A stretch of 64,000 bases of DNA. It comes from Verrucomicrobiia bacterium. Its GTDB lineage: Bacteria; Verrucomicrobiota; Verrucomicrobiia; Palsa-1439. Made by a program: the position numbers and the translations under genes. Positions 2,890-58,135 of this stretch are shown here, in pieces; position 1 is the stretch's first letter; the number at the start of each line of letters is the position of its first letter. The notes below the pieces were generated by a model. The model searched no databases and was not told where the DNA came from. It saw only the letters and a program-made list of their open reading frames with translations. Where the stretch lies: contig DATLVI010000009.1 in NCBI GenBank assembly GCA_035577545.1, positions 3,696-67,695 of the forward strand, read 5' to 3'.

Positions 2890-3030
2890 TTCGCGCGACC
2901 AAGCATCTTCGCTTGTTGACGGATTGTGCGCGGCGCTTGACGGAATCCACCTTGACCGTGCTGGCGGCAATCCCTATCCTGTCAATCGCGGCTCGGTCAT
3001 ACAGCGATCACCAACAAGCCTTAAAAGCCC

Positions 3031-4635: not shown

Positions 4636-4641
4636 GCCGCC

Positions 4642-6236: not shown

Positions 6237-6297
6237 GGCAGTCCTTTTTTAAGACTCACGAGGCTATCAGGTTCGTGTTCCCATCGCAATACGAGGC

Positions 6298-7506: not shown

Positions 7507-7587
7507 CCGGCCAGTTTCCCATTTTCGGGCACAGGGCGCAAGTATCGGATGGTCACAGCTGGTAAGTTGCGCTACGCTTCCGGGCCG

Positions 7588-12230: not shown

Positions 12231-12593
12231 GATCCTCACCCTTTCCCGTGTTTGAACTCGCTATACCCTTTAACATCGCAAACGCTGTAATCACTTACAA
12301 CGTTCTCCATCGGACTCTCGCCCAACTCGCTATTGGGCCGATAAACTACTTTACTAGAATATGAAATTTGCAGTGCATTTGCAAGACATACCAGCCGACC
12401 GCGCGCGCCTATTTAGTAGCATCTTGCGTCATTGAATGGTCTGGCAAGTATCGTAATGCGAAAGGGTTAAATGAGTGAGGGGTTTCATCCAAATCTCGAT
12501 CTTGCGAGCAAGCGTTTGCAGACGGCCGCAGACGTGTCCGCGGCGGTTGAAAGGATCGCCTCTACAACCGGTAACGGTGCATGTAAAAAGCAG

Positions 12594-15542: not shown

Positions 15543-16454
15543 AGACCTCGCCCTTTGATTTTGATCTCTTGTCCGGCCTCACTGACCACGTTATGCCTGC
15601 AAGGCTTTCTGCACCCGTCGTTTCAGAACAAACCCCCGTCGGAGTGTATGCTCTTGTGCCTAAAAGTATGCATTCGCTCTGCCAGGTTTGCAAGTGATTT
15701 GCAGCGGAAACCCTTGAATTTCAGGAGCGTATTCTTTCAGTGAAGAAAGATGCTAGGTCGCGTTTCCAGCGCGGTATGGGAAAGGTCTCCGTATACACGC
15801 AAGCGAACAAGTTTGGAAACGTTAGCATGTTTTCGCAAATCGACTGCGCAATTCTGTCGCAACCATCCAAAGATGGGAAGGTGGCGCACACCCCCGCGAT
15901 TTGAGGTTCTTTTGTTGACCATTCGCCTTCAGGGTGAGCTGATGAGGTGCTCTTTCTGGGGCGTAGAATGCCGGGTCAAGTTAACTGCGGATCGAACTAC
16001 ACTATTCCTTGGAAGAAGAGATCGAATGGACATGCTGAGAATAGCGCAGCGGGAGCGATTGTAGTGTATTAGATGGGAGATGCTATCGAGTTAGCCAGAA
16101 CAAATGACAAGAACATCTGCTTGGAGTATTCGCGCCGGAGTTGCGGTTTGGCGGGGGATTGTGGAGCGCCACCATGGCCGTAGATGCAGCACAACATGCG
16201 CTTCCCGAGCAGGGGTGTGCATCTGAATAAAATCGCCCACTTCGGAGCCTAGCATATCTGCTCACTGAGCGAACAAGCTCTTCAAATCCATGCAAAACGA
16301 ACCTTAAATTCTTGCAAACGCCGCGAAAAGGGTGCAGGTTAAATAGCCGTGGCCCGTTGTGTTTGGAATGAGAACGTGCCGCTAAACGGGTCGCAAAACA
16401 AGCCAAGACGGAATGTGGATGAGGTCATCTGAAACACGGAGGCACTGGAGATAT

Positions 16455-17174
16455 ATGCAGTCCAATCAAACCAAAAAGAACGCGTTTACCCTCATTGAAC
16501 TGCTGGTGGTCATTGCGATTATCGGCATCTTGGCGGCGATGTTGCTACCCGCGCTGAACAAGGCGCGCCAGAAAGGTTACCAAGCCTCTTGTATCTCTAA
16601 TGTGAAGCAGTGGGGACTGGCCTTAAACATGTATGCTGACGATTGGGGCGGCACGATGTTCTACGACGCAGGCGGTGTGCACTTTACTGACAACAATACC
16701 CCTCTGATGCAGTACATAGGAAGTAGCAATGCTGTGGAGAAGTTACGTGTCATGAGAGCGTGTCCGGCAAGAGTGGCGCGCATGAACCCTCCAAGTCTCG
16801 CCTATAATATGCCCGTTGGGACCTATCGCAAGGGCTTGGCTTATAAGGATGCGGATACTGCCCCGTCGCCTGGGTTCACTAACCCTTTTTACGGTACCCC
16901 CACGAATCCCTATTGGCCGAACCTGACGTCCTGCCCCAACCCCTCTCAATTCGTGTTGCTGATTGAGTGCTACAACACCATGCATAGCGGTCAGTTTGCC
17001 GGCAAGGTGAGCTCGCCGGCGTCGGGTGCAGGTGACCCTGTCCCGCCAATCCAATGGCATAATTCGGTTGTCAATTGTCTTTTTGGTGATTTCCACGCCG
17101 AAGCGCAAACCATGCAGCAGGTAACGGCAATGGATTCTGGCAGTCCAGCCAACCCGGCGTCCCAACTGAATTAG
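16455..17174 (+). CDS. Prepilin-type N-terminal cleavage/methylation domain protein with a DUF1559 (H-X9-DG-like) C-terminal region.
   Basis: [39 protein letters not shown] is a class III (type IV pilin/pseudopilin) leader. ...[15 protein letters not shown] resembles the H-X9-DG region. This family is expanded in Planctomycetes and Verrucomicrobia. Confidence 0.8.
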
Positions 17175-32941: not shown

Positions 32942-35900
32942 ATGCGGTGCGTGCTGGTCTGGCTCGCACTGGCCGGGCTGGCACAGGGCGATCCGTCATT
33001 GCCGATCATCGCCAACCAAACGTTCGTCGTCACGAACGCGATCTACGGCGCAATCGGCGACGGCTTGACGAACAACGCCGCTGCGATCCAGAGCGCCATC
33101 AACGACGCAAGCGCCAACGGGGGAGGGACCGTCGAAATACCGGCCAACGGCACGTTGAGTACCTACCTCAGCGGCCCGATCAACCTCGCCAGCGGCATCA
33201 ATCTGCAGATCGACGGCGGCGCGATGCTCCAGATGCTCCCGCGCAACGTGACGACGAACGGCTCGACCATCATCCCCAAATGGCCTTCGGCTTCTACACC
33301 GTTTATCCTCGGGAGCAGCCTCACCGATGTCGCCATCACCGGTTCGGGGATCATTGACGGGCAAGGCACGAACTGGTGGTTCCCTAAAGCCTCGACGCGG
33401 CCGAACTTCATCCAATTCACCCATAGTACACGCGTCCTGATCCAGGGTGTGACGCTCCAGAACCCGCCGACCTTTCACATCATGTTGAAAAACACCAACA
33501 TCGGTTTGACGATCCAGAACATTACGATCAACACCCCGGCTTCTTCACCCAATACCGACGGGATGGACCTGGCCTCGACGAATGTGCTGGTCCGCAACTG
33601 CTTTATCAGTGCCGGGGATGACAACATCGAGATCGGGGGCAGCAGCGCCGCGGCGGCGGACATCACCGTCTCCAATTGCACGTTCGGCGCCGGGCACGGG
33701 TTGTCGATTGGCAGTTTGGTGAATGGAGCGGGCGGCGGCGTACATGATTTGATCGTGAGCAACTGCACGTTCAACGGCACGAGAAACGGCATCCATATGA
33801 AGTCGGACCGGGATATTGGCGGTGTGGTGCAAAATCTCCAGTACCTCGACATCACAATGACCAACGTGAGCTACCCGATCGCGATTTACAGCTACTATGA
33901 CTCCATCGGTTCGCCGAGCACCTTCAACATCAGCCCGTTCATGGCTTCCACGGACACCGTTCAGACCGTCACGAGCACCACCCCGATCTGGCGCAACATC
34001 ACCATCAGCAACCTGACGGTGTTCTCGACCAGTGGGAAAAACATCGTCGGCCTGATCTGGGGCCTGCCGGAGATGCTCGTTTCCAACTTGACGCTGTACC
34101 ACGTGAATATCGCGGCGCCCACCAAGAGTTTTGACATCTACAACGCGCAAGGCATCCAGATCATTGACTCCAACCTCACTGCGCCCAGTAGTACCAACAC
34201 CTTGACCCTCTACAACGCCCAGGTCACAATCACGAACGCCGTCGCCAGCACCAACGTGGTATCACTAGGTGGGCTGGCGGTGCCCCCGACCAACAACGTC
34301 CTCGCGTTCGTTAACGCAGTTGCCGCCATTACCGATACGAACATGCTCGGCACCGGTTCCATCACACTGGACAATAGTACGCTGACGCTCACGCAGGACT
34401 CGGTGACTATCCCCAACAATCTTCGTGCGCTCTCGGCCAGCACGTTAGTCATAAGCAGCGGCAGTAATACGCTGAGCGGCACACTCAGCGGCCCCGGCCC
34501 GTTGACGATTAGCAATAATGTGGCCTTTAGTAGCAGCGCGGTGTTGCAGTACGCACCGGGCACAAACAGCGAACCAACAGTTGTGAGCGGCGATCTGGCA
34601 TTGGACGGCACGCTGAATATCGCCGATGGCGGCGGCCTCACCAACGGGACGTACGTGCTCTTTAGTTACGGTGGGACACTGACCACGAACGGGAGTCCAA
34701 CCATCCTGACCCTGGGTGTGGTGGCGAACCCCAGCTTCTTCAACTATACCGTGGATGTTGGTTCACTCGGGGCTGTGAGACTACTGGTGACGTTTGCAGC
34801 ACCAATAGCCGACTTTACCGCCGACCCGACCAACGGGGTGTTGCCCTTGACTGTGATGTTCACCGACGCATCGATTGGTTCGATCACGAATCGGTTTTGG
34901 GATTTTGGGGATGGAGTGACGACCAATACGGTGGCGACCAGCGTGGCGCACACGTACAACGCGGCTGGAAGCGACACCGTACAGTTGATCGTGAGCGGGC
35001 AGGGCGGGGTGAGCACCAATACGCGCGTCAATTACATCACGGCTGCCTGCGCCTACACATTATCCGCGACGAACGCCAGCTTTGGCGTCACGGGAGGGAC
35101 CAACCTCGTCACCGTGTCCGCTGCGGATTCCTGCCCATCTTGGACTGCCGTCAGCAATGACAGTTGGATTCAGATTGTTGGTGGCAGCGTCAACGCCGCG
35201 GGCGACGCCGCCATTGTGTACGCCGTCCTGCCGAGCAGCAGCACCACACTGCGCGCCGGGACAATGACCATTGCCGGCCAGACGTTCACGGTGAACCAGC
35301 CGGGTGATACCATCGCTCCCGCCGTTGCTCTGACCACACCGGCAGCGGGCCTCGTGAGCGGCGCGGTGGCTGTCAGCGCGACGGCAACCGACAATGTTGA
35401 AGTCGCGAAAGTGGAATTCTACCGGGATGGCAACTTCCTGCTCGGGACCATCAGTTCTCCGCCATACGTCATCAGTTTCAACACGACAACCCTGGCAGAT
35501 GGGCCGCACTGTTTCTCGGCCAGGGCGTATGACCTGGCCGGTAACACCGCCGTTTCCAGCAATTGCGTGATCGTAGACAACAATGCTCCGTCGGTGCCGA
35601 TCAACCTGACCGCCACGACCATTGCCACCAACCAGATCGATCTGAGCTGGAGCGCCTCCAGTGACAACGGTTCGGGTGTAGCCAGCTACCGGCTCTACCG
35701 TGACGGCGAGCAGATTGCGACGACAATCCACACTACGTATTCCGACAACAGTCTGGCTGCTAAAACGGTGTATTGCTACGTAGTCGCGGCTCAGGATGAA
35801 CTCGGGCATGTGTCGGCGTCGAGCGCCGATGCCTGCGCCCAGACGTTTGTCACGGCGGTCCCGGCGTTGGGTCGGTACAACGGTTTGGCGATCCAAACCA

Positions 35901-36862
35901 ATGCGCCCTCGCAGGCCAGCTCGGGGTCGATCAAGCTGATGGTCACCCGAAACGGGCCGTTTGCCGCCAGCCTGAGCCTGGGGGGCGTGCGCAGCGTCTT
36001 CAAGGGACAGTTCGATGCGTCCGGCAACGCGACCAACACGGTGACACGTACCGGGCTGGATTCCTTGCAGGTGATCCTGCATTTGGATCTGGTCGAAGGC
36101 ACCGACCAGATACGAGGGAGTATCTCGGATGGGGAATTTACCTCGGAGGTGCTGGCCGACCGCCAGATATTCAGCGCCACGGCCCGTTGTCCGCTGGCCG
36201 GTACCTTTACAGTGGTGCTGGAGCCGCCCGAAGGAGACGATCCGAGCCTTCCGGAAGGATTCGGTTACGGGACATTGACAGTGACGCCAACCGGACTGGG
36301 TCGAGTGAGTGGGGTGCTGGCGGACGGAACGAAGCTCAACGTCCGGGTGCCGCTGTCCAAGCACGGCACGTTGCCGCTGTACCAGGTGCTGTACAACAAT
36401 CACGGCGCGTCGATTGGGTGGATGACGTTCGGAACCAACAGCTCGGTCGGGGCGAGGGTGGACTGGTTCCGTCCTCGGATGGCCGGTTCAGCGTATTTCC
36501 TAGCGGGGTTCACGACCAACGTGACGCTGCTGGGCCAGAAATACCTCTCACCGGTAGACAACGGGCCGAGTGCGGCGGGCAACCGCCAGGTGACGCTGGG
36601 CGGCGGCAACCTGGTCAGCAGTATCGTGGAGACAGTGCTGGTCACGGACGTCGGCGCGGTGATTGTGCCGCCGCCAAACCCGGAGAACCTGCAAATGAAG
36701 ATCCAGACGGCGACTGGACAGTTTAGCGGGAGCTTCACGCATCCGGGGCTGGGTCGGACAGTGAATTTCAACGGGCTGGTGCTGCAGCTCGACGGATCGG
36801 GGGCCGGATACTTCCTCGGTTCCAACACCAGCGGTTTTGTCGTCTTTGAGCCGACGCCGTGA
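32942..36862 (+). CDS. Giant secreted modular GH28 polygalacturonase (GH28, PATR-like, PKD, BACON/Ig-like, Ig-like, Fn3, and a ~340-aa C-terminal module of a second type).
   Basis: Start chosen at MRCVLVWLALAGLAQG (signal peptide); upstream ATG/GTG alternatives run to 32774. GH28 motifs: PNTDGMDL, GDDNIEIGG and GHGLSIGS. Fn3 unit: ...SVPINLTATTIATNQIDLSWSASSDNGSGVASYRLYRDGEQ... The C-terminal module YNGLAIQTNAPSQ...GAGYFLGSNTSGFVVFEPTP is homologous to the C-terminus of the GloVer protein at 55883-58135. Confidence 0.8.
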   Translation: MRCVLVWLALAGLAQGDPSLPIIANQTFVVTNAIYGAIGDGLTNNAAAIQSAINDASANGGGTVEIPANGTLSTYLSGPINLASGINLQIDGGAMLQMLPRNVTTNGSTIIPKWPSASTPFILGSSLTDVAITGSGIIDGQGTNWWFPKASTRPNFIQFTHSTRVLIQGVTLQNPPTFHIMLKNTNIGLTIQNITINTPASSPNTDGMDLASTNVLVRNCFISAGDDNIEIGGSSAAAADITVSNCTFGAGHGLSIGSLVNGAGGGVHDLIVSNCTFNGTRNGIHMKSDRDIGGVVQNLQYLDITMTNVSYPIAIYSYYDSIGSPSTFNISPFMASTDTVQTVTSTTPIWRNITISNLTVFSTSGKNIVGLIWGLPEMLVSNLTLYHVNIAAPTKSFDIYNAQGIQIIDSNLTAPSSTNTLTLYNAQVTITNAVASTNVVSLGGLAVPPTNNVLAFVNAVAAITDTNMLGTGSITLDNSTLTLTQDSVTIPNNLRALSASTLVISSGSNTLSGTLSGPGPLTISNNVAFSSSAVLQYAPGTNSEPTVVSGDLALDGTLNIADGGGLTNGTYVLFSYGGTLTTNGSPTILTLGVVANPSFFNYTVDVGSLGAVRLLVTFAAPIADFTADPTNGVLPLTVMFTDASIGSITNRFWDFGDGVTTNTVATSVAHTYNAAGSDTVQLIVSGQGGVSTNTRVNYITAACAYTLSATNASFGVTGGTNLVTVSAADSCPSWTAVSNDSWIQIVGGSVNAAGDAAIVYAVLPSSSTTLRAGTMTIAGQTFTVNQPGDTIAPAVALTTPAAGLVSGAVAVSATATDNVEVAKVEFYRDGNFLLGTISSPPYVISFNTTTLADGPHCFSARAYDLAGNTAVSSNCVIVDNNAPSVPINLTATTIATNQIDLSWSASSDNGSGVASYRLYRDGEQIATTIHTTYSDNSLAAKTVYCYVVAAQDELGHVSASSADACAQTFVTAVPALGRYNGLAIQTNAPSQASSGSIKLMVTRNGPFAASLSLGGVRSVFKGQFDASGNATNTVTRTGLDSLQVILHLDLVEGTDQIRGSISDGEFTSEVLADRQIFSATARCPLAGTFTVVLEPPEGDDPSLPEGFGYGTLTVTPTGLGRVSGVLADGTKLNVRVPLSKHGTLPLYQVLYNNHGASIGWMTFGTNSSVGARVDWFRPRMAGSAYFLAGFTTNVTLLGQKYLSPVDNGPSAAGNRQVTLGGGNLVSSIVETVLVTDVGAVIVPPPNPENLQMKIQTATGQFSGSFTHPGLGRTVNFNGLVLQLDGSGAGYFLGSNTSGFVVFEPTP

Positions 36863-43891: not shown

Positions 43892-45472
43892 ATGAAACTG
43901 ATACCCTGCTTCAATTCATGTGCCATCGCCGCCTTACTCTGCATCGCACCCTTCACGATGGCGCAAACAATGCCGACTGACGGCTTTTTCAATGTCCTCA
44001 GTTTTGGCGCCTCGCCGGACGGGCAGGCGAAGTGCACCGAGGCGATTGGCAAAGCCATCGACGCGGCCTCGGCCAAAGGCGGGGGGACGGTGTATTTTCC
44101 AGCCGGTACGTATCTGACCGGGCCGATTCATCTCCAGAGCCATATCACATTATACGTGGATGCCGGCGCGACGCTGAAATTCAGCACCAACTTCGATGAT
44201 TACCTGCCCATGGTGTTGTCGCGGTGGGAAGGGATTGTCGTGACAAATTTCTCGCCATTGATTTATGCGTACAAGGCGCAGGACATCGCCATCGTTGGCC
44301 GGGGCACCCTCGATGGGCAAGGGCAGGCATGGTGGGACTTCTATCGAAAGATCTCACGGGGGACGAATGCGGTACCGCGGAGCAAATGGCAGGAAGAATT
44401 CACTCGCCTGAACAAAGACACGATCGCCGAGTTGAATTACCGGCTGCTCGACATCGGTTTCCTGCGACCGCCGTTTATCCAACCGAATGAATGCAGCAAC
44501 GTGCTGGTCGAGGGCGTTACTATCCGGAATTCGCCGTTTTGGAATGTCACCCCGGTCTTTTGTGAGAATGTCAACGTCCGTGGCGTCACCATCATCAGTC
44601 CTCCGACGTCACCCAATACGGACGGCATCAACCCCGATTCATGTCGCAACATCCGTATCTCGGATTGCTACATCAGCGCGGGAGATGACTGCATCACCAT
44701 CAAATCGGGCCGTGACGCCAATGGCCGGCGCGCCGGGCGGCCGCTGGAGAATTGCACGATTGTGAATTGCACGCTCCTCCGCGGCCATGGCCTGTCCATT
44801 GGGAGCGAGATGTCTGGTGGCGTGAAAAACCTGACGATTGCCAATTGCGTGTTCGATGGCACCGACCACGGTATTCGCATCAAATCCACCCGTGGTCGCG
44901 GCGGTGTCATTGAAGACGTTCGGATCAGTAATCTCGTGATGCGCAATATTCGTCAGGATGCGATATTGCTCACGACGTTTTATACGAAGACGCAACCCGA
45001 GCCGGTATCGGAGCGCACGCCCATCTTTCGCAATATCCATTTCAGCGGCATTACGGGCGACGCAAAGATCGCCGGCGAACTAACCGGCCTCGAAGAAATG
45101 CCCCTCGAGAATATTACGTTCGACGACATCCAGCTTGACGCCAAAACCGGTTTCGCGTTGAAGGATGTCAAGGGGATTGAGTTTCATAACGTCACCGTCA
45201 ACACGGAGAGCGGGCCGGCCATCACGGCGACGACCACCGAAGGGTTGGAGATTGATGGAGTTAAAACTGCAAAGGCGCACCCGGGGACACCCGTTATCGA
45301 TTTGGGCAAGGTCAAGAGTGTATTTGTGCGAGGCTGTGTGGCCGCGCCGGAGACAGAAACATTTCTGCGCGTGAACGAGGACTCCGCGGACGAGGTAACG
45401 CTGGAAGGTAATAATCTGAAGGCGGCGAAGACGGCGGTGGAAAAGGTTAAGGGCAACAGTTCGGCTAACTAA
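43892..45472 (+). CDS. Secreted GH28 polygalacturonase / exo-poly-alpha-galacturonosidase, 526 aa, single domain with no C-terminal anchor module.
   Basis: Signal peptide MKLIPCFNSCAIAALLCIAPFTMAQ. GH28 motifs: PNTDGINPDS, GDDCITIKSG, GHGLSIGSE and IRIKSTRGRGG. Confidence 0.9.
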   Translation: MKLIPCFNSCAIAALLCIAPFTMAQTMPTDGFFNVLSFGASPDGQAKCTEAIGKAIDAASAKGGGTVYFPAGTYLTGPIHLQSHITLYVDAGATLKFSTNFDDYLPMVLSRWEGIVVTNFSPLIYAYKAQDIAIVGRGTLDGQGQAWWDFYRKISRGTNAVPRSKWQEEFTRLNKDTIAELNYRLLDIGFLRPPFIQPNECSNVLVEGVTIRNSPFWNVTPVFCENVNVRGVTIISPPTSPNTDGINPDSCRNIRISDCYISAGDDCITIKSGRDANGRRAGRPLENCTIVNCTLLRGHGLSIGSEMSGGVKNLTIANCVFDGTDHGIRIKSTRGRGGVIEDVRISNLVMRNIRQDAILLTTFYTKTQPEPVSERTPIFRNIHFSGITGDAKIAGELTGLEEMPLENITFDDIQLDAKTGFALKDVKGIEFHNVTVNTESGPAITATTTEGLEIDGVKTAKAHPGTPVIDLGKVKSVFVRGCVAAPETETFLRVNEDSADEVTLEGNNLKAAKTAVEKVKGNSSAN

Positions 45473-47733
45473 TGACGGAACAGGAGACGATGGTGGGACA
45501 AAAGTTCTTCTTGGCGTGGGCTGCCGCGCTCATGCTGGTCTGCCTTGGCGCCAGCCAACAAGTGGTGGCGCAAACGAATCTTGTTGCCGCAATGATCGGC
45601 ACCAACCAATTCAAGACGGTTCAGGAAGCGATCAACGCCACGCCGCAGAACGCCAGCGCGGCCAACCCCTGCATGATCCACGTGAAGCCGGGGGTTTACA
45701 AAGAGTTGATCCACGTCCAGCACGAGAAACGCTACGTCCATCTCATTGGTGAAGACGCAAACAAGACGGTGCTGACGTACGACCTGAACGCGAAACTTTT
45801 GGGCGTCGACGGCAAGCCGGTCGGCACGTTTCGCACGCCGTCGGCGGTGATCGATGCGGACGATTTCTCCGTGGAGAACATTACCTTCGAGAACTCCGCG
45901 GGTCCCGTCGGACAGGCCCTGGCAATTCGCGTGGATGGCGACCGTGTGGTGTTTCGCAACTGCCGGTTCCTCGGTTGGCAGGACACCATCCTGGTGAACC
46001 GTGGCCGCCAGTACTTCGAAAACTGCTACATCGCGGGACACGTTGATTTTATTTTCGGCGGCGCAACGACATTCTTCGAGAGCTGCCATATTCATTGTCT
46101 GTCGAATGGTTATGTCACTGCGGCTTCGACGCCGGAGGAACATCCCTACGGTTTTGTCTTCTCGAACTGCAAGATTACCGGTGAATCACCCGGCGTGCGG
46201 ACCTATCTGGGCAGGCCCTGGCGTGCGTTCTCCAGCGTGACGTATCTGAATACCGAGATGTCCGGCGTCGTCACCAACGTCGGTTGGAACAATTGGAAAG
46301 ACCCGACCCGCGAAAAAACGGCGCGTTACGCTGAATTCGACAGTAGCGGTCCCGGCGCGAATCCACAGGCGCGTGTGCCATGGTCGCGTCAACTAAGCAA
46401 GGCGGAAGCCGACGTGATCACCCCGCAAGAAGTCCTGGGTGGCGTGGATGGATGGAACCCGAAGACGGGTTCCACCAGGCGAATACCTGCTGGGAACACA
46501 ACGAAGGCCGCTGTACCGCCCGACCTGACGGTTGCGGGAGACGGTAGTGGAGATTTCAAAACGATTCAGGATGCGCTGGACTCGGTGCCGCGCGACAATC
46601 GGCAACGCACCATTATTTTTATCAAGGACGGCCTGTATCATGAAAAAGTGCGGATTGACCCCGGGTTCGTCACGCTCCGCGGCCAGAGTCGGGACGGCAC
46701 GCGCGTCGAATTCCCCCAAGGGGCCGATGATTTCACCAACCACCCGGACAAGGTCGGGCGCGCGGTCGTCAATATCAACGGCAGCGATTGTGTCTTGCAA
46801 AACCTCACTGTCAAGAACACGCACGGCATCATCGGCCCGCACGCCTTCGCGATTTATGGCCATGGCGACAAAACCGTGATCGTGGACTGCAATGTATGGA
46901 GCCAGGGTGCGGACACACTCGCATTGTGGGGTGATCGGAGTGGGTCCTACCAGGCACGTCTCGACATCTGCGGCTCGGTGGACTTCGTGTGCCCACGCGG
47001 CTGGTGTTATATGACCGATTGCTCCCTGCACCAGGTCAATCCCAAAGCCGACGCGACCATTTGGCATGACGGGGCCAAGGACGCAGATATGAAATTTGTC
47101 CTGCGCAATTGCCGGTTTGAGGGGGTGGGGGACATGCCGAGCTGGATTCTGGCCCGCCATCACCACGACGCCCAGTTCTACCTGCTGGACTGCAGCTTCT
47201 CCAAGACCCTGAGTAATCGACCGCCGTTGCGCGTCATTTATCCGCTTAACCACGGCGAGCCGAGTGAGGCGGACAAGAAGAGAAACCACGATTTGGACGC
47301 CAGCAACATTTGGGGCGAACATGCATACTTCTACAACTGCCACCGCGACGGTGGCGATTACACCTGGCACAAGGACAACTTATCTTCCGCGACGAATTCA
47401 CCGGAGCCCGAGCAGATGACGGCGGCTTGGGCGTTTGCGGGGAAATGGGATCCCGAACGACACGCCGGTCCGACCATTCGAAGCGTTAAACAACAAGATG
47501 CTCGGTTCGAGGTTGTCTTCAGCGAGAGCGTTACGGTGAAGGGCAAGCCGCAACTCGTCTTGAAATCTGGTAAAGTCGCCGGCTACGTTTCCGGTGGTGG
47601 AACGGATACCTTGAACTTTGCAATTCCTTCGGGGCAACAAGAAATGGTTGGTGGAGTGAATCTACGAGATGGGGCGATCATTGCCTCGGAGGCGGCCGCC
47701 ACTCTGCGTGTTGCCGATCTGTCATTGCCTTGA
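45472..47733 (+). CDS. Secreted tandem-domain CE8 pectin methylesterase of 753 aa: a canonical N-terminal PME plus a second, divergent PME-like domain.
   Basis: Domain 1: FKTVQEAINATP, GQALAIRV, WQDTILVN, GHVDFIFGG and YLGRPW. Domain 2: GDFKTIQDALDSVP, AFAIYG, QGADTLAL and GSVDFVCP. The start codon overlaps the previous stop (TAATG). Confidence 0.85.
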   Translation: MTEQETMVGQKFFLAWAAALMLVCLGASQQVVAQTNLVAAMIGTNQFKTVQEAINATPQNASAANPCMIHVKPGVYKELIHVQHEKRYVHLIGEDANKTVLTYDLNAKLLGVDGKPVGTFRTPSAVIDADDFSVENITFENSAGPVGQALAIRVDGDRVVFRNCRFLGWQDTILVNRGRQYFENCYIAGHVDFIFGGATTFFESCHIHCLSNGYVTAASTPEEHPYGFVFSNCKITGESPGVRTYLGRPWRAFSSVTYLNTEMSGVVTNVGWNNWKDPTREKTARYAEFDSSGPGANPQARVPWSRQLSKAEADVITPQEVLGGVDGWNPKTGSTRRIPAGNTTKAAVPPDLTVAGDGSGDFKTIQDALDSVPRDNRQRTIIFIKDGLYHEKVRIDPGFVTLRGQSRDGTRVEFPQGADDFTNHPDKVGRAVVNINGSDCVLQNLTVKNTHGIIGPHAFAIYGHGDKTVIVDCNVWSQGADTLALWGDRSGSYQARLDICGSVDFVCPRGWCYMTDCSLHQVNPKADATIWHDGAKDADMKFVLRNCRFEGVGDMPSWILARHHHDAQFYLLDCSFSKTLSNRPPLRVIYPLNHGEPSEADKKRNHDLDASNIWGEHAYFYNCHRDGGDYTWHKDNLSSATNSPEPEQMTAAWAFAGKWDPERHAGPTIRSVKQQDARFEVVFSESVTVKGKPQLVLKSGKVAGYVSGGGTDTLNFAIPSGQQEMVGGVNLRDGAIIASEAAATLRVADLSLP

Positions 47734-47757: not shown

Positions 47758-49068
47758 ATGAAATTGAACTGCAAAATAATTCTTACGATGACCCTGTGGA
47801 TGGCACTGCTGTTTGTTACCGCGGGCCCGGCGAATGGCATACTGTCGCTCGTCTTTGATGTCAAAGAAACCGGTGCGAAGGGCGACGGTAGAACATTGGA
47901 CACGGACGCGATCCAGAAGACGCTTGATGATTGCGGGAAGGCGGGCGGCGGGACGGTAAGATTTCGTGCTGGCACGTACCTGAGCAAACCGGTTGTTCTT
48001 CGTGGCAATACCACCGTGCAACTGGATGCCGGCGCAACGCTGTTGGCGACGGACGATCCGGCTGACTTTGCCGGGAGTAGTTCAAACTCTTTCATCCCGT
48101 TTATCAGTGGAAAAAAACTTCGCAATGTTACCATCACGGGTCAGGGGATCATCGACGGCTCAGGCGCGAAGTGGTGGATCCCCGCCGAGGCCGCCCGACA
48201 AAAGACGCCGGGTTACACGCTGCCCCGTCCAAATCTGGTTGTGTTAACGGGTTGCACGAATCTGCGCATCGAGAATATCACGCTGCAAAACTCACCCAAG
48301 TTCCATTTGGTACCGACCGATTGCGACGGCGTGATTATCTCGAACGTGACAGTCCTCGCTCCCGCCCACGCGGCGAACACCGACGCGATTGATCCCAGTG
48401 CCTGCCGGAATGTGGTGATTACAAAATGCCGCATTGACGTGGGCGATGACAACATCGCCATCAAGGCCGGCAAGGCCATGCCGGGGCGGCCTTTCGCGTG
48501 CGAGAACATTACCGTTACCGACTGCACGTTCCTGCATGGGCATGGGATGTCAATTGGCAGCGAAACTGCCGGAGGCGTGCGCAATGTCACGGTGCGAAAC
48601 TGCACATTTGAAAATACGGAGAATGGGATTCGCATCAAATCACAACGGGGCAGGGGAGGTATCGTCGAGAACATCAGCTATAGCGACATCACCATGAAGA
48701 ATGTCGATCCCGCGATCACGTTGACCAGCTACTACATGTTCAACTCTGCCGGCGATGCCAAACAAAAATCCGAGCCCGCCAAGGACACCGCCCAGCCTCT
48801 TGCCGCCGGGACGCCGATTTATCGGAATATCCACATCAACAACCTGACCGCCACCTGCCAGAAAGCGGCGGGGATCATCATTGGTTTACCGGAAAGCCTG
48901 ATCTCCGACGTCACATTGGAGAATGTCCAGATCACCTCCGCAACGACCGGTTTGAAGATTCAAAACGCCAAGGGAATAGAATTCAAGAACGTGCAAATCG
49001 CCGCCAAGCAGGGTCCTCCCGTTATCCTGGACAACGCCGAAGTGGCTGGTGTCGCGGCGACGAAATAA
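47758..49068 (+). CDS. Secreted GH28 polygalacturonase, 436 aa.
   Basis: Signal peptide MKLNCKIILTMTLWMALLFVTAGPANG. GH28 motifs: ANTDAIDPS, GDDNIAIKAG, GHGMSIGSE and IRIKSQRGRGG. Confidence 0.9.
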   Translation: MKLNCKIILTMTLWMALLFVTAGPANGILSLVFDVKETGAKGDGRTLDTDAIQKTLDDCGKAGGGTVRFRAGTYLSKPVVLRGNTTVQLDAGATLLATDDPADFAGSSSNSFIPFISGKKLRNVTITGQGIIDGSGAKWWIPAEAARQKTPGYTLPRPNLVVLTGCTNLRIENITLQNSPKFHLVPTDCDGVIISNVTVLAPAHAANTDAIDPSACRNVVITKCRIDVGDDNIAIKAGKAMPGRPFACENITVTDCTFLHGHGMSIGSETAGGVRNVTVRNCTFENTENGIRIKSQRGRGGIVENISYSDITMKNVDPAITLTSYYMFNSAGDAKQKSEPAKDTAQPLAAGTPIYRNIHINNLTATCQKAAGIIIGLPESLISDVTLENVQITSATTGLKIQNAKGIEFKNVQIAAKQGPPVILDNAEVAGVAATK

Positions 49069-51030: not shown

Positions 51031-52581
51031 ATGAATGAGTCACTCAAAGAGCGATTAAAAACGGTGTCGGACGCTTTGCTGGCGTTCTCGCTGGTGAACC
51101 TCTGTTTCATCCGGGCGCGATGGGCGTTATTTTTCGACAACGACTTTCGTTATTACAAACACCATTCCCTGACAAAGGAAACTCTCCTGGCGTTGAGCCT
51201 AAACTTGTTCGTGTTTGGGCTCATGGGTTGGCGGTTGGTTCGGTGGGTCAGGCGCACCGACTCCCGCAACCTCTATCGCGCCGCTTGCGCAATTGTGTGC
51301 ATATTGCTGCTCATTCCGGTCGATTTCCTGCGAACCTATTATTTCCATGTTCCGGGCAGCAACGTAATCGTTTTTGGAAAGAGTCCGTTCTTCATTGGTG
51401 TCAGCTTGGTTGTGTTGTTCACGTTTTGGTGCTGGCCCAGAATCTCTGCGAGTGTGTTGGCTGCTGGTCTGCTGATCTGTGCGCCGATGTCCATTTTGAC
51501 GTTCGGGAAAGTTGGCTATTACCTCCTCAATACCCCTCCTCGACATACTCCCCAGTTCGCGCCGTTCTTTCCCACCCCCCGGCCATCGGTGGAACCGCGG
51601 GTCGTTTGGATTATCTATGACGAATTGGATCAGCGCTTGGCGTTCTCCAACCGGCCGAAAGACACGCAACTTCCCGAACTGGATCGCGTATGCGCCGAGA
51701 GCCTGCAGGCGACCAATGCGTTTCCGCCGGGTGTGTCCACGGCCATCTCGTTACCGGCATTGACCACAGGGCGATATGTCATCTCGGCGAAGCCGTCTGC
51801 CAGGGATGAGTTGAGTATCATCTACCCGGATGCCAGCGCTCCCGTTGGGTGGAGCAAGCAGCCAACAGTTTTTTCCCGCGCCCGTGCGCTGGGTTTTAAC
51901 ACCGCATTGGTCGGGTGGTACCATCCCTACACCCGTCTCTTTACGAACTGTCTGAACTACTCCGTGTGGTATCCCTATCCGCCTTACCAGCCCGACCGGA
52001 GCGAAACAGTTCTGAGCAGCATGATCACCCAGATTTGGTCATTGATGTCACCCCTGCAACAGCGCTGGATGCAGATCGATCTCTACCAAAACTCGCTGGA
52101 AAACTCGCGTGACCTCGTGAAAGACGGCCGCTACGGACTGGTGTTTCTCCATTTACCGGGGCCGCACTATCCTGGTATTTATGATCCAGCCAATGGAGCG
52201 TTCACAATTATGAGCTTCTCCCGCATCCGTGGCTATTTTCAGAACCTGCAGTTGACCGACAAAACGATGGGGATCCTCCGCCGTGACATGGAACACGCCG
52301 GCCAGTGGGACCGCTCCTGGGTCCTCGTCAGTTCCGACCACTGGTGGCGCGATGCCCGGGGTTATGACGGCCAACTTGATTATCACGTGCCGTTTATCCT
52401 GAAGGCACCGGGGAAGAATCAACCGATGATCTACGGCGCGCCTCTCAATACAGTGATCTCCCAGGATCTGGTTCTGGCCATCCTGCGGAAGGAAATCTCG
52501 ACAATTCCAGAGGCGGTCACCTGGCTGGATACGCATCCGGCTCCGCCGGCCCCAAGTTACGCAGTCATGATGCTGAGATAA
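51031..52581 (+). CDS. Integral membrane protein with a C-terminal sulfatase/alkaline-phosphatase-superfamily domain (LtaS/EptA/OpgB-like transferase architecture).
   Basis: The N-terminus has ~5 hydrophobic helices. The C-terminal domain has VVWIIYDELDQR, ...WVLVSSDHWWR and DYHVPFILKAPG, reminiscent of membrane-anchored phosphoglycerol/phosphoethanolamine transferases. Assigned by fold and motifs only. Confidence 0.5.
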   Translation: MNESLKERLKTVSDALLAFSLVNLCFIRARWALFFDNDFRYYKHHSLTKETLLALSLNLFVFGLMGWRLVRWVRRTDSRNLYRAACAIVCILLLIPVDFLRTYYFHVPGSNVIVFGKSPFFIGVSLVVLFTFWCWPRISASVLAAGLLICAPMSILTFGKVGYYLLNTPPRHTPQFAPFFPTPRPSVEPRVVWIIYDELDQRLAFSNRPKDTQLPELDRVCAESLQATNAFPPGVSTAISLPALTTGRYVISAKPSARDELSIIYPDASAPVGWSKQPTVFSRARALGFNTALVGWYHPYTRLFTNCLNYSVWYPYPPYQPDRSETVLSSMITQIWSLMSPLQQRWMQIDLYQNSLENSRDLVKDGRYGLVFLHLPGPHYPGIYDPANGAFTIMSFSRIRGYFQNLQLTDKTMGILRRDMEHAGQWDRSWVLVSSDHWWRDARGYDGQLDYHVPFILKAPGKNQPMIYGAPLNTVISQDLVLAILRKEISTIPEAVTWLDTHPAPPAPSYAVMMLR

Positions 52582-52675
52582 GTGGTGGCCCCACAACAGA
52601 GGCCTCCCTCCCAAGCGCGCTGATTTGGCTTCTCCCGGGCCAACTTATTTGCTATAAGTAAGGAGACTCGTGCTG

Positions 52676-55540
52676 ATGAGAAGCGTTGTAGCACATTCGT
52701 TTTCCTGGTGTCGATTCATCAAGATGTTTCGACTCGCAGCGGGAATTGTCGCCCTGACGGCTCCGCTGCGGGAGCTGCCCGCCCAATCTTTCATTCAACA
52801 ACCCCAGGGCGGCACACGGTATCCGGGGGACGGCTTTCTTCTTTCGTGTGTTGTTGCGGGGGATCCACCACTGACCTACCAGTGGTTTCAAGATGGCAAT
52901 CTTCTTGCGGGCGCAACCAATAGTCAGCTGTTCCTCACCGATCTGGCACTGACTGCCGCCGGCAATTATACTGTGATCGCCAGCAATGGATCGGGCAGTA
53001 GCACGAGTGCCCCAGCTGCGCTGGTAATCCTTTCCGACACCACCATCACGAGTACGATCCAGGACGTACGGCATGTCGTGATTTTCATGCAGGAGAATCG
53101 CTCGTTTGACCACTACTTCGGCACGCTTAAGGGCGTGTGCGGGTTCAGCGACCGTAATGCCTTGCAATTAACGAATGGGAATACGGTGTTTTTCCAGCCG
53201 CAAGGTTCCAGCTATGTCTTGCCATTTCATTACACACCACAATGCCTGGACGATGTCGAGCACGACTGGGGCGCCGGGCATGAAGTATGGAATTCCGGTC
53301 ATTGGGACCGCTGGCAAATCAACGGCCCAAGCGCCATGACGTATTTCACACGTGATGACTTGCCCTACTACTACAGCCTGGCGGAAGCCTATACTCTCTG
53401 TGACGCTTACCATTGCTCGGTAATGGGGCCAACGTTTCCCAATCGCCTGTACTTGATGACCGGCATGATGGATCCCAACGGCACCGGCGGTGGACCGCGA
53501 TTGGATAATAGTCTCCCACCATTCGGTTTCACTTGGACAACCTATCCCGAACGGCTCCAGGCAGCAGGGGTTAGTTGGAAAGTCTACCAGCAGTTCAGCG
53601 ATTTCTTCCCGCTCAACGCCCTCGATTGGTTCGCCCAGTACCGTTTTGCTCTGCCGGGAAATCCTCTCCACGACAAGGGCGTCGCCTTGGTAAACAACCT
53701 CGTCTCGGCGTTCCAAGCGGATGTCGCCAATGATACACTGCCACGCGTCTCTTGGATCATCCCGCCCTGGTCCTTATCGGAGCATCCACCTTACTCCCCT
53801 GCCAACGGCGAGCGGTTGACGAAACAACTCCTCGATGCGCTTGCCTCAAACCCAACGGTGTATAACTCGACAGTCTTTATCCTTACTTATGACGAGGCGG
53901 GTGGCTTTTTCGACCATGACCCGTCGCCAGTGCCACCTCCAGGAACGCCCGACGAATTCATCATTGGCGAGCCAATCGGTCTCGGGGTACGCGTGCCCAC
54001 AATTTTGGTATCGCCTTGGACGCGTGGCGGCTATCGCTGCTCGCAGGTGTTTGACCATTCATCGGTCATTCGCTTTCTTGAGACTTGGACGGGTGTGCAA
54101 GAGCCGAACATCAGCGCCTGGCGTCGGCAGGTCTGCGGGGATTTGACATCCGCTTTCAACTTCACATCCCCCAACGCTGATTATCCGTATCTGTCGACTG
54201 TCCCAGCGATTAATTGCTCTGATGGCAATTCGCCTTCCGCGCCCGCACAGCAAACCGTCCCTACGCAGGAGTCCGGTGCGCGGCCCGACCGCCCGCTGCC
54301 GTATCAACCGAACGCCGTCTCCCTTATCGATTGCGGCGCGGGTCAATTCGGGATCACCATGACAAACGCTGGGGCCGCGTCCATCCATCTCGCGATCTAC
54401 CCCAATGCATACCGGACCGATGGCCCGTGGCAGTACGATGTCGACGCCAACAATTCCGTGAGTGATGGCTTTGATATCATTAGTTTTGGTGGCGGCCTGT
54501 ACGACCTCACGTGCTACGGGCCGAATGGCTTCCAGCGGCGATTCGCCGGCAACGTGAATGCAAACTGCAACCAGGTCGAGTTGACTTCCGCCATCGACCC
54601 AGTTGCCGGCACCATTGCCCTTTTCATGCAGAACCTAACGACATCGACAGTCGTTTTCACAGTTACCAACGACTATCCAACCGGCGGCCCATGGACTTAC
54701 AACGTTCCAGCGGGAAGCACGGTCACCGACACATTTCCCGCAGTCGCGAATAACAACGGCTTGTACGATCTGACCGCGACGGCTGACAGCGATGCGCTCT
54801 TCGTTCGCCGACTTGCCGGCCATATCGAAGCCGTCGACTTCTCTTTCGTGGTTACTCCCAATACCCAGTCCGTAACCGTTGGCAGCAATGCGACGTACGC
54901 GATAACAGTGGGGGCGATCACCGGATTTGGTGGGGGCGTGGTTCTTTCTCTGGGTAACCTGCCCACAGGTGTCAACGCAGTTTTTGATCCACCGTCGGTC
55001 GCCGGGTCGGGGACTTCGACTTTATGCCTATCGGTTTCCGGCGACGCTATGCTGGGCAGCTACCCACTGACCATCACGGCTACCAGTAGTAATATCACGC
55101 ACACCGCCAACATTATGTTGACGATCGTTCCTCTCGATACAGATGGCGATGGAGTTCCAGATTCGTGGACGCAGCAGTACTTCGGGAGTTCAACCGGTCT
55201 GGTGTCCAACCTTTCCATGGCTTATCAGGATGCTGATGGCACCGGTCAGAACAATCTGTTCAAGTACGCTGCCGGCCTTGATCCGACCAATCCAGCCTCC
55301 GTGTTTATGCTGCAGATCCAGAATGTGCCCGGCCAGCCCAACCAGAAAACGCTCATCTTCGGCCCCCGCGCCAACGGTCGCACGTACATCGTTGAATCGA
55401 ACACTGACGCGGCCAAGGGCAGTTACTTGGCGCTCGGCAGTTTCGGTGGACCGCAGACCAACGGCAATCAAGTGACTGTCACCGATCTGAATGCCGTCGG
55501 GACACAAATATTCTACCGTGTCCATATCACGTATCCCTGA
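52676..55540 (+). CDS. Secreted phospholipase C / acid phosphatase family protein (PlcN-like phosphoesterase) with an N-terminal Ig-like domain, two DUF756-like domains and a divergent copy of the conserved C-terminal domain.
   Basis: AGGAG Shine-Dalgarno 10 nt upstream of the ATG at 52676. Catalytic hallmarks VVIFMQENRSFDHYFGTLKGVCGF and GVRVPTILVSPWTRGGY. Ig-like YQWFQDGNLLAGATNSQ. The C-terminus DTDGDGVPDSWTQQYFG...DADGTGQNNLFKYAAGLDPTN...QIFYRVHITYP. Confidence 0.8.
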   Translation: MRSVVAHSFSWCRFIKMFRLAAGIVALTAPLRELPAQSFIQQPQGGTRYPGDGFLLSCVVAGDPPLTYQWFQDGNLLAGATNSQLFLTDLALTAAGNYTVIASNGSGSSTSAPAALVILSDTTITSTIQDVRHVVIFMQENRSFDHYFGTLKGVCGFSDRNALQLTNGNTVFFQPQGSSYVLPFHYTPQCLDDVEHDWGAGHEVWNSGHWDRWQINGPSAMTYFTRDDLPYYYSLAEAYTLCDAYHCSVMGPTFPNRLYLMTGMMDPNGTGGGPRLDNSLPPFGFTWTTYPERLQAAGVSWKVYQQFSDFFPLNALDWFAQYRFALPGNPLHDKGVALVNNLVSAFQADVANDTLPRVSWIIPPWSLSEHPPYSPANGERLTKQLLDALASNPTVYNSTVFILTYDEAGGFFDHDPSPVPPPGTPDEFIIGEPIGLGVRVPTILVSPWTRGGYRCSQVFDHSSVIRFLETWTGVQEPNISAWRRQVCGDLTSAFNFTSPNADYPYLSTVPAINCSDGNSPSAPAQQTVPTQESGARPDRPLPYQPNAVSLIDCGAGQFGITMTNAGAASIHLAIYPNAYRTDGPWQYDVDANNSVSDGFDIISFGGGLYDLTCYGPNGFQRRFAGNVNANCNQVELTSAIDPVAGTIALFMQNLTTSTVVFTVTNDYPTGGPWTYNVPAGSTVTDTFPAVANNNGLYDLTATADSDALFVRRLAGHIEAVDFSFVVTPNTQSVTVGSNATYAITVGAITGFGGGVVLSLGNLPTGVNAVFDPPSVAGSGTSTLCLSVSGDAMLGSYPLTITATSSNITHTANIMLTIVPLDTDGDGVPDSWTQQYFGSSTGLVSNLSMAYQDADGTGQNNLFKYAAGLDPTNPASVFMLQIQNVPGQPNQKTLIFGPRANGRTYIVESNTDAAKGSYLALGSFGGPQTNGNQVTVTDLNAVGTQIFYRVHITYP

Positions 55541-55882: not shown

Positions 55883-58135
55883 ATGTCGTTCCGCTATGAA
55901 CCTGTGGGTCGTGGCGCCATTTTATGCGATGATGACCTGCTGATCGGGGACAACCACTCGCGCCAGAGAGAATTGAGAGGAAAACGTGTCGTGCTAAAAA
56001 GCTTCCGGATTTTGGCTGCAATTATCGTGCTGGGCATGGCGGGAGCGGGTGCCTTGGCGACCCAGATCACGCCTGAAACCATCTTTAAGTTCTCCGGACC
56101 TGACGGCGGCTTACCGCAGTCCGAGCTGGTGAAGGGCAACGACGGACTGCTTTATGGGACAACCGGGGAAGGCGGGGCTCACAACACCGGGACCGTCTTC
56201 AAAATCACGACGGCGGGCGCGTTGACCACGATCTACAGCTTTACGGGCGGCTCCGACGGTTGTAGCCCGCGCGCGGGAGTGATCCAGGGCAGTAACGGAT
56301 TCTTCTATGGGACGGCCTCCGGCTGCGGGACGAACGGCTTTGGCACGATTTATCAGGTCGACTCAAATGGCGTGTTTACCACGCTCTACACTTTTACCGG
56401 CGGCATCGACGGCGGTGTCCCCGATATCAAACTGGTAGAGGGGAACGACGGACTTTTCTACGGGACCACCACCGGGGGTGGCGTGAACGGCACCGGCAGT
56501 GTGTTCACTGTCAGTTCCGTGGGCACATTCACGACGCTTTTCAGCTTTGACGGTACCGACGGCGGCAGGCCTGCGGCGGGTCTGGCGCAAGGTAGCGACA
56601 GCAATTTCTACGGCACAACTTTCTTCGGCGGGACGAATGACCACGGCACGGTGTTCCAGATTACCCCGGCCGGAACGTTGACCACCTTGTTTCAGTTTGC
56701 CGACAACACGAATGGGGATTTTCCAGAAGCGCAACTTATCCAGGGTAGCGACGGCCTTTTCTACGGAACAACCTCGGACGGGCCGCGCGGCGATGGCACC
56801 GTCTTCAAGATCACTACGGCTGGCACGCTGACGACGCTGCATAATTTTGCCGCCGGCGAAGGGAAAGACTCACGGGGCGTGCTTGTTCAGGGACGCGACA
56901 GCTTTTTTTACGGGATGACCCTGGGTGGAGGGAACCGATTCGGGACCGTGTACCAGGTCACGTCCAACAGCGTGTTCACGTCGCTCTACAGCTTCAACGG
57001 TGGTACGGATGGCGCGTTTCCCTACGCCGGGCTGATCCAGGGCGACGACGCCTTCTTTTACGGGACGACAGCCTTCGGGGGCGCAAAGCTCCACGGCACC
57101 GTATTCCGGTTTGGGATTTTCCCGGCCGGGACGTACAACGGCCTCGCGGTCCAGACCAACGCGCCAACGTTTGACAGTTCAGGTTCGATTACGCTCTCCC
57201 TCACTGCCACGGGTTCTTATACGGCAAAGCTGACGATCGGCGGCGTGCTCTCCGCCTTCAAGGGCCAGTTCGATGGGACAGGGAATACGACGAATACGAT
57301 CGCGCGCAAAAACCTGAACTCGCTTCAACTCATCATGCAGTTGAGTGAGGCTGGCGGGACCAATCAAGTCATCGGCACCGTGTCGGATGGTGTGTTCACG
57401 TCTCAGCTGCTGGCTGATCTGGGTGGGTTCGGTAAAAACTTCCGCTGCCCGTTCGCGGGGAAGTTTACTTTCGTCGTGCCGCCAGTTGATACCACCGATA
57501 CGAATTTCCCCCAGGGATATGGCTATGGGACATTGACGATATCAAAAACCGGCAAGGGCAGCCTACGGGGCGTGCTTGGCGATGGGACGAAGATTTCAGG
57601 CACCGCTCCAATATCATTGCTTGGTTCATGGCCGTTCTATGAGTTGCTCTATTCCAAGAAAGGGTTCTCCCTTGGGCGGATTGCCTTTACTGGCACCAAT
57701 GTGATCGACGCCGCACTCGACTGGCAGAAACCGCCGGTGCCAGGGGACCGCTTCTACTCGGGCGGATTCACGACGTTGGTCTCCCTGGCGGGCGGATTGT
57801 ACCTCAAGCCGAATTCGTCGACCAACTCCGCGGGTCTGTCGGTCGCGGGTACCAACGTGGTCACGTTGGGCGGGGGCAACCTTGTGAGCAACATCGTAAA
57901 GACAGTGGTCGTCGATGCTTTCGGGAATGTCACAGTCTCGTCGCCCGGCAGTGAGAAGCTGGCGTTATTTGTGGTACCGCAGACCGGGCTGTTTAGCGGC
58001 AACTTCGTCGATACCGCTATCAACAAGTCTCCCATTGTCTTTACCGGGCAATTGGTGCAAACGAATCATTTCGGCGGAGGCCTCTTTCTGGGAACGAACG
58101 ATAGCGGCTTCGTGACGATCATGCCATCTCCGTAA
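55883..58135 (+). CDS. Secreted 'GloVer' choice-of-anchor tandem-repeat protein (8 repeats) with a ~340-aa C-terminal module homologous to the C-terminus of the 32942-36862 GH28 giant.
   Basis: Repeats of form G..P...L..G.DG.(F/L)YGTT..GG....GT(V/I)F.(I/V)...G..T.L..F, repeated 8 times. This pattern matches the Gloeobacter/Verrucomicrobia GloVer repeat family. Likely true start is the GTG at 55991, giving a signal peptide (M)LKSFRILAAIIVLGMAGAGALA. The C-terminal module is YNGLAVQTNAPTFDSSGSITL...GGGLFLGTNDSGFVTIMPSP. Confidence 0.75.
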   Translation: MSFRYEPVGRGAILCDDDLLIGDNHSRQRELRGKRVVLKSFRILAAIIVLGMAGAGALATQITPETIFKFSGPDGGLPQSELVKGNDGLLYGTTGEGGAHNTGTVFKITTAGALTTIYSFTGGSDGCSPRAGVIQGSNGFFYGTASGCGTNGFGTIYQVDSNGVFTTLYTFTGGIDGGVPDIKLVEGNDGLFYGTTTGGGVNGTGSVFTVSSVGTFTTLFSFDGTDGGRPAAGLAQGSDSNFYGTTFFGGTNDHGTVFQITPAGTLTTLFQFADNTNGDFPEAQLIQGSDGLFYGTTSDGPRGDGTVFKITTAGTLTTLHNFAAGEGKDSRGVLVQGRDSFFYGMTLGGGNRFGTVYQVTSNSVFTSLYSFNGGTDGAFPYAGLIQGDDAFFYGTTAFGGAKLHGTVFRFGIFPAGTYNGLAVQTNAPTFDSSGSITLSLTATGSYTAKLTIGGVLSAFKGQFDGTGNTTNTIARKNLNSLQLIMQLSEAGGTNQVIGTVSDGVFTSQLLADLGGFGKNFRCPFAGKFTFVVPPVDTTDTNFPQGYGYGTLTISKTGKGSLRGVLGDGTKISGTAPISLLGSWPFYELLYSKKGFSLGRIAFTGTNVIDAALDWQKPPVPGDRFYSGGFTTLVSLAGGLYLKPNSSTNSAGLSVAGTNVVTLGGGNLVSNIVKTVVVDAFGNVTVSSPGSEKLALFVVPQTGLFSGNFVDTAINKSPIVFTGQLVQTNHFGGGLFLGTNDSGFVTIMPSP

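Follow-up and report, generated by a model that had tools for sequence, protein, structure and literature searches.

A C-terminal module shared by a GH28 protein and a GloVer-repeat protein of a Verrucomicrobiia bacterium is predicted to form three small β-barrels and may retain secreted proteins at the cell surface

We analyzed 64,000 nucleotides (the window) of a 209 kb metagenomic contig of a soil Verrucomicrobiia bacterium (DATLVI010000009.1), in which a giant GH28 protein (open reading frame (ORF) 32942-36862) and a GloVer-repeat protein (ORF 55883-58135) end in the same C-terminal module of ∼330 residues. The shared module is real and robust. It is best regarded as a family that lacks a model in both Pfam and NCBIfam and that belongs to a familiar class, the phylum-restricted C-terminal modules of surface and secreted proteins; its predicted structure puts a known barrel fold into a triple arrangement that is new. 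As to function, we tentatively propose, with a probability of roughly 0.4, a non-catalytic C-terminal module by which proteins exported via Sec are kept at, or targeted to, the cell surface.

The end of the GH28 protein (window 35870-36859, copy 1) and the end of the GloVer-repeat protein (57128-58132, copy 2) are colinear homologs. BLASTP of the translations of 35861-36859 and 57110-58132, with composition-adjusted statistics, aligned 335 positions, of which 157 are identical (47%) and 64% are positives, with two gaps summing to 5 positions and an E value of 7e-100. The original prediction, which had put the identity of the two C termini at ∼45-50%, is borne out; it had also described both hosts correctly, and the peptides that it quoted lie where it had placed them. 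The Smith-Waterman score of the two copies is 774, compared with 45.7 ± 7.6 for 300 shuffles (z = 96), and the likeness is therefore not a compositional artifact of Gly/Thr-rich sequence. At the DNA level, the two copies share only 57% identity, indicating that they are old paralogous domains and not the product of a recent duplication. According to tblastn, the window holds exactly two copies of the module.

The module had no true match among the Pfam and NCBIfam models, even at E ≤ 10; an LCI-fold match (PF12197, 22 bits over 32 residues), present in only two of seven members, was judged spurious. A sequence-profile search of the PDB returned no sequence relative of the module either; it matched only fn3 and Ig proteins, by way of alignment columns that flank the module upstream. 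In the literature searched, the triple-barrel domain was not described, and every family member that has a name is either a "hypothetical protein" or named after its upstream repeats. The family itself is large. A word-indexed search gave 57 close relatives, all of them metagenomic, and when all of 1.84 billion cluster representatives (clusters at 50% identity) were scanned with HMMER, 5,194 clusters matched at E ≤ 1e-3, of which 727 reached E ≤ 1e-30.

Throughout the family, the module is found at the extreme C terminus, as it is in both window proteins. Of the 186 retrieved proteins that contain the module end, 185 stop no more than 15 residues from it, and 180 do so within ±3 residues of one aligned position. 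The search for further copies that the original prediction had suggested thus found the module to be overwhelmingly terminal and not mostly internal. Of 185 proteins, 129 (70%) end in Pro and a single one in Phe, with the consensus ...V-x-x-E-P-x-P-COOH; the GH28 protein ends in ...FEPTP (stop codon 36860-36862) and the GloVer-repeat protein in ...IMPSP (stop codon 58133-58135). Nothing that resembles PEP-CTERM or a membrane anchor follows the module end. The sole long tail (P0143, +40 aa) is an acidic, Pro-rich low-complexity stretch and neither a PEP-CTERM signal nor a transmembrane anchor.

A few divergent members carry two to four modules in tandem (P0147 with 2104 aa, P0148, P0161, P0082, and locus L070), the last copy being terminal. 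The tandem copies are usually parted by an Ig-like domain of ∼160 aa (ASH/HYDIN-type) or lie close together (P0161), and some proteins of this subfamily consist mostly of modules. Apparent stand-alone module proteins (310-400 aa) were rejected as truncated gene calls without a signal peptide, many of which start inside Flg_new_2.

A genome scan with one narrow peptide pattern yielded 71 loci, 65 of which are named as Verrucomicrobiota lineages by their record titles, mostly metagenome-assembled genomes (MAGs) from peat, soil, and freshwater. The most distant loci belong to Brevifollis, Prosthecobacter, and Chthoniobacteraceae, and a single locus (L067, Brevifollis gellanilyticus NBRC 108608) comes from the genome of a cultured strain. 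Four loci are labeled "uncultured bacterium," and two (L033 and L047) come from one MAG labeled Candidatus Baltobacteraceae (SMAG_U14535, Eremiobacterota), for which mis-binning or lateral transfer is possible. Several MAGs hold two or three module loci each.

The proteins that end in the module are diverse. Upstream of it, 58 full-length members carry 95 Pfam families, most often Ig-like spacers such as Flg_new_2 (27/58) and Big_7 (17/58); a glycoside hydrolase domain (GH28) is present in only two. Some close relatives combine the module with BACON, PKD, RHS/YD, cupredoxin plus Ig, or NHL domains, and further partners are WD40, LRR, and Calx-beta; the passengers reach more than 3000 aa. A signal-peptide-like hydrophobic region is found in 76 of the 99 members with a plausible N terminus, and a lipobox-like motif in only 3. 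The median isoelectric point (pI) of the module is 8.6 (interquartile range 6.2-9.2) and that of the upstream passengers is 4.7.

The AlphaFold2 model of the module, built with a 33-sequence alignment (pLDDT 92.9, pTM 0.88), is all-β and comprises 24 short strands (3-11 residues, mean ∼7.7) that make up three sets of eight (residues 4-102, 114-227, and 240-331). The module is thus predicted to consist of three consecutive small 8-stranded up-and-down β-barrels of the soluble type, and barrel 3 modeled alone reached a pLDDT of 94.5. An internal triplication at the sequence level was dropped, as hhalign among the three barrel sub-alignments gave probabilities of ≤1.1%; without sequence similarity between the barrels, the three-barrel description is one of predicted structure only.

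In a Foldseek search with the whole module, TbpB ranked top (E 1e-6, probability 1.00), but with a TM-score of 0.24, which is no global match. The closest folds are the barrels of TbpB, hemophilin, and NHBA, and LbpB and HpuA match as well (9-16% identity). Avidins and de novo barrels score almost equal to the TbpB-type barrels, and further matches are the 8-stranded barrels of Cap15, YceI, the lipid-binding BT_2261, and GID4. Soluble barrels outscore OmpA-type barrels. A structure prediction had been suggested to look for an outer-membrane barrel, a lectin, or an S-layer-binding fold; with three soluble-type barrels predicted, the outer-membrane and S-layer readings fail.

Apart from Asp-155 and Gln-309, the positions conserved across 158 modules hold Gly, Pro, or an aromatic residue. 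They are densest in barrel 2 (P131, G133, L153-x-D155-G156, W171-P172, Y174, Y178, W202, and F217), and barrel 1 of copy 1 opens with a conserved G-x-Y-x-G-L motif. No catalytic-type constellation is found among these positions, and nothing suggests catalysis.

The module is not the only C-terminal ending of large proteins at this locus. The giants ending at 21886, 25212, 28904, 32829, 40653, and 43863 on the forward strand and the protein encoded at 12687-15542 on the reverse strand terminate in ...RYYR[VI]RL[VA]P, and ORF 52670-55540 ends in the variant ...FYRVHITYP. The GH28 giant is the only giant of the array without such an ending, as had been claimed. The RYYRVR-type module comprises ∼125 aa, with a TSP3-like DPDGDG...EFLAGTDPN motif followed by a β-rich region of ∼90 aa. 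Only the TSP3 part has a Pfam match, and the module is common to eight large secreted window proteins, including the variant. Like the triple barrel, the RYYRVR-type module appears to be an unannotated C-terminal domain. Together with a PEP-CTERM signal, at least three kinds of C-terminal element (PEP-CTERM, RYYRVR-type, and triple barrel) are present in one organism and one locus.

No genuine triple-barrel protein was matched by a profile hidden Markov model of the RYYRVR-type module. A candidate carrier of both modules (P0102) was rejected, as it merely has a TSP3 motif and, behind it, a different Ig domain. With the GloVer repeats alone as query, at least 7,970 homologs were retrieved. The C termini of the top 120 are formed by a TIG domain (...PFRVLP), by an FYRV-type module (...RFYRVSLAP), or by no such domain; none of these 120 carries the triple barrel. 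GloVer proteins thus have alternative C termini, as the original prediction had it, and with the lack of co-occurrence of RYYRVR-type module and triple barrel, a pattern of interchangeable C-terminal modules holds.

The choice of module is conserved on orthologous enzymes as well. In two loci from other MAGs (L002 and L003), a GH28 protein with the triple barrel (∼58% module identity) again lies between RYYRVR-type giants, which argues that the choice of the C-terminal module is maintained and not accidental. Three unrelated C-terminal domains end in Pro, namely the triple barrel (...EPxP), the FYRV-type module (...RLVP), and the TIG domain (...PFRVLP). The shared terminal Pro may protect from C-terminal proteolysis or serve as a common recognition feature.

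How might the module act? In the usual layout of its Sec-exported, non-lipidated multidomain hosts, an enzyme or repeat "head" is followed by Ig-like spacers and then by the module. The module would hold its host on the outer surface of the producing cell by non-covalent binding to an envelope component, for which lipopolysaccharide, a surface glycan, or a lipid are candidates, and it might also mark proteins for delivery to the surface. Its mode of action would resemble that of the GW modules at the C terminus of Listeria InlB or of other repeats that bind the wall non-covalently. In the window, the GH28 pectinase and the GloVer protein would be retained by a mode or at a site different from that of their RYYRVR-type neighbors.

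Surface retention is suggested by the strict terminal position, the promiscuous partners, the head-spacer-module layout, the several copies per genome, and the tandem arrays. A mildly basic module on acidic passengers is compatible with binding to an anionic envelope, and tandem arrays are also a feature of avidity-type binding repeats. Further points in favor are the signal-peptide-like N termini, the confident soluble-barrel model, the alternative endings of GloVer homologs, and the conserved architecture of the orthologous loci. The module had been proposed as an "alternative anchor," a reasonable positional inference; the internal tandem copies of a minority of proteins, however, do not fit a pure terminal sorting signal. 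As far as position is concerned, the proposal stands, given the terminal location, the varied passengers, and the lack of co-occurrence with the RYYRVR-type ending; the outer-membrane or S-layer fold that it had considered does not.

Several observations weigh against surface retention. The basicity of the module is mild and variable, and copy 1 has a pI of just 6.1. A strict C-terminal position is unusual for binding domains, and the terminal Pro hints at a role of the free C terminus. Three enzymes of the same locus (43892-45472, 45472-47733, and 47758-49068) do without any C-terminal module. Neighbor clustering of the 71 loci found no universally conserved partner, sorting, or translocon gene within 6 kb. 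Finally, the closest folds (TbpB, hemophilin, and NHBA) are better known as secretion-directing or structural elements than as anchors (PMC12282271).

These folds lead to an alternative that we consider unlikely, in which the module is a secretion signal: an outer-membrane protein would recognize it from the periplasmic side and export the passenger that precedes it, as in type 11 (Slam/DUF560) secretion and, by position, like the C-terminal domain of the type IX secretion system (T9SS). In the type 11 secretion system (T11SS), a C-terminal 8-stranded barrel guides Sec-exported cargo via an outer-membrane Slam/DUF560 protein (PMC12282271), and the resemblance to the TbpB and hemophilin barrels would agree with such a role. 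However, the likeness is at fold level, with low identity and nearly equal scores for avidins and de novo barrels, the module has three barrels instead of one and no Pfam TbpBBD match, and it can occur internally in tandem. Neither DUF560, a secretin, nor another candidate translocon is encoded in the window, there is no DUF560 or other conserved outer-membrane gene within 6 kb of the 71 loci, and T11SS is found predominantly in Proteobacteria (PMC12282271). That the triple barrel is the cargo-recognition domain of an undescribed, Slam-like outer-membrane export route of Verrucomicrobiota is quite improbable.

We also have little expectation that the module binds an external ligand, as a lectin-like carbohydrate-binding domain or as a calycin/avidin-like domain for small molecules or lipids that targets environmental substrates such as plant cell walls or other cells. 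Barrels of this class (avidins, Cap15, YceI, BT_2261, and GID4) typically bind ligands, barrel 2 has a conserved cluster (W171, Y174, Y178, W187, W202, F217, and D155), tandem repeats occur, and one host is a pectinase. Yet the conserved aromatic residues may be mere barrel-core residues, and the strict C-terminal position is odd for a carbohydrate-binding module (CBM). With a glycoside hydrolase in only 2 of 58 members, partners as varied as cupredoxin, RHS/YD, NHL, WD40, LRR, and Calx-beta, and no match to a CBM model, the module is probably not a substrate-specific CBM.

Least probable is a structural role as a stable C-terminal cap or oligomerization base, for protection from proteolysis or assembly of surface fibers: conservation mostly of Gly, Pro, and aromatic residues, a frequent terminal Pro, which resists many carboxypeptidases, and the apparently rigid three-barrel arrangement in the model would suit it, but 330 residues are costly for a cap, and the RYYRVR-type and TIG domains also end in Pro yet are much smaller.

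The features of the two host genes are collected in Table 1. The first host is a member of the GH28 family, with a PF00295 score of 172 bits at a cut-off of 22.9. Its mechanical ORF start (GTG 32774) overlaps the end of the preceding gene at 32829. The second host, with its tandem repeats and its homologs with varied C-terminal domains, is a GloVer "choice-of-anchor" protein (TIGR03803). The mechanical ORF of the giant that follows the GH28 gene (GTG 36859) overlaps the GH28 stop codon by 4 nt (36859-36862); its likelier start is a later ATG (∼36895, MRTESRRK...), after which a signal peptide follows.

Table 1. Host genes, domains, and predicted barrels of the two module copies in the window
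Feature	Coordinates	Strand	Evidence or remark
Gene, GH28 multidomain protein, 1306 aa	32942..36862	+	Signal peptide MRCVLVWLALAGLAQG at 32942-32989
GH28 polygalacturonase-type catalytic β-helix, residues 64-349	33131..33988	+	Pfam PF00295, E 1.8e-50
Ig-like spacers: PKD (residues 619-700), Big_7 (793-856), fn3 (885-955)	34796..35806	+	Pfam
Copy 1 barrel 1, module residues 4-102, 8 strands (predicted)	35870..36166	+	AlphaFold2 DSSP, conservation
Copy 1 barrel 2, module residues 114-227, 8 strands (predicted)	36200..36541	+	AlphaFold2 DSSP, conservation
Copy 1 barrel 3, module residues 240-331, 8 strands (predicted)	36578..36853	+	AlphaFold2 DSSP
Gene, GloVer-repeat protein, 750 aa	55883..58135	+	N-terminal hydrophobic signal region
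GloVer (TIGR03803) tandem repeats, 7 matched	56066..57109	+	NCBIfam, E 6.8e-102
Copy 2 barrel 1 (predicted), aligned to copy 1 residues 4-102	57128..57424	+	BLASTP and AlphaFold2 DSSP
Copy 2 barrel 2 (predicted), aligned to copy 1 residues 114-227	57458..57799	+	BLASTP and AlphaFold2 DSSP
Copy 2 barrel 3 (predicted), aligned to copy 1 residues 240-331	57848..58126	+	BLASTP and AlphaFold2 DSSP

The GH28 gene is part of a pectin/galacturonate utilization locus (window 744-7998 and 17453-49068). This locus encodes the tagaturonate epimerase UxaE, an AraC regulator, an MFS transporter, an SDR protein, and a GH88 protein, along with five GH28 proteins, one pectate lyase, and two pectinesterases. 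Three or four eukaryote-type Ig domains (I-set/Ig_3) are present in many of these large enzymes. Directly upstream of the giant-protein array lies a pseudopilin-like gene (16413-17174, forward strand) with an N-terminal methylation motif and a weak DUF1559 match. A protein of 322 aa encoded on the reverse strand (11271-12239) carries a genuine PEP-CTERM signal and ends in ...VPEPSTVMLVGAGLGLMLTLARRRRS. Upstream of the GloVer gene, the forward strand encodes a membrane protein of the sulfatase family (LTA-synthase-like, 51031-52581) and a phospholipase C-type phosphoesterase with an N-terminal Ig domain and the FYRV-type C-terminal ending mentioned above (52670-55540).

Recurring neighbors of the module genes in the 71 loci are HisA/HisH-like and UvrD-like housekeeping genes, PMT_2-TPR proteins, and sedolisin-like proteases. 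In the window, two neighboring genes (7009-9489 and 9490-11172, forward strand) encode PMT_2-like (GT39-type) proteins that span the membrane several times and have TPRs at the C terminus. Homologs lie near the module gene in 16 of the 71 loci and directly upstream of it in three (L009, L011, and L014), the module proteins of which, at ∼815 aa, are comparable to the window GloVer protein. One of the two window proteins exceeds the Pfam cut-off for TPR_Slam. The TPR_Slam matches (7108-9486 and 9490-11169) were rejected as generic TPR cross-matches on PMT_2-type membrane proteins that lack the DUF560 barrel. A link of the PMT_2-TPR proteins to the glycosylation of Ser/Thr-rich secreted proteins is possible.

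Verrucomicrobiota are major polysaccharide degraders in soil, peat, and water, and the export and retention of their giant enzymes and adhesins are poorly understood. A 330-residue domain that ends thousands of proteins provides a concrete handle on these processes, defines a testable class of surface and secreted proteins, and is a candidate tag for localization or display. If it were a sorting or anchoring domain, it would be a new element among the C-terminal targeting systems. If it served a Slam-like route, barrel-directed secretion would extend beyond Proteobacteria, which would explain the display of giant enzymes and adhesins; the link to secretion-directing barrels is intriguing and lies at the level of the predicted fold only. 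Even with a binding or structural function alone, this would still be a large uncurated family that deserves a database model.

Comparison with known C-terminal systems sets the module apart from most of them. Outer-membrane proteins end in an aromatic residue (the OMP β-signal). The short strands, the preference for soluble barrels, and the terminal Pro, together with the lack of a Pfam match, argue that the module is neither an outer-membrane β-barrel or autotransporter nor a substrate of the β-barrel assembly machinery (BAM). The T9SS C-terminal domain of Bacteroidota is a single Ig-like sandwich of ∼80-100 aa, unlike the predicted three barrels in 330 aa, which matched no corresponding NCBIfam or Pfam model. 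The PEP-CTERM signal is a motif of ∼25 aa plus a helix; in contrast, the module can be tandem, ends in ...EPxP with no transmembrane segment or basic tail beyond, and matched no PEP-CTERM model. It resembles both systems as a phylum-restricted C-terminal element that is found on many unrelated secreted hosts and in several copies per genome.

With the Slam/type 11 cargo proteins (TbpB, LbpB, fHbp, NHBA, HpuA, and hemophilin), the module shares a C-terminal 8-stranded soluble barrel after a variable N-terminal region. It does not belong to the TbpBBD/lipoprotein C family, for which there was no match in Pfam or NCBIfam, and it differs from TbpB-type cargo in its three predicted barrels without handle domains and in its hosts, which are mostly not lipoproteins. 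Moreover, it is found in Verrucomicrobiota and on far larger passengers. Avidins and other calycins as well as the de novo 8-stranded barrels are single-domain ligand binders that share no motifs with the module.

For surface retention, the GW modules of Listeria InlB offer a works-like analogy. Several of these small β-barrel-like modules, in variable copy number, form the extreme C terminus of the protein after a B-repeat; they have an SH3-like fold and bind lipoteichoic acid in a Gram-positive host. Fold and sequence are unrelated to those of the triple barrel, and no homology is claimed. The order of domains is nevertheless comparable: just as GW modules follow B-repeats, the InlB-B-repeat-like Flg_new_2 precedes the module in the 27 of 58 members counted above.

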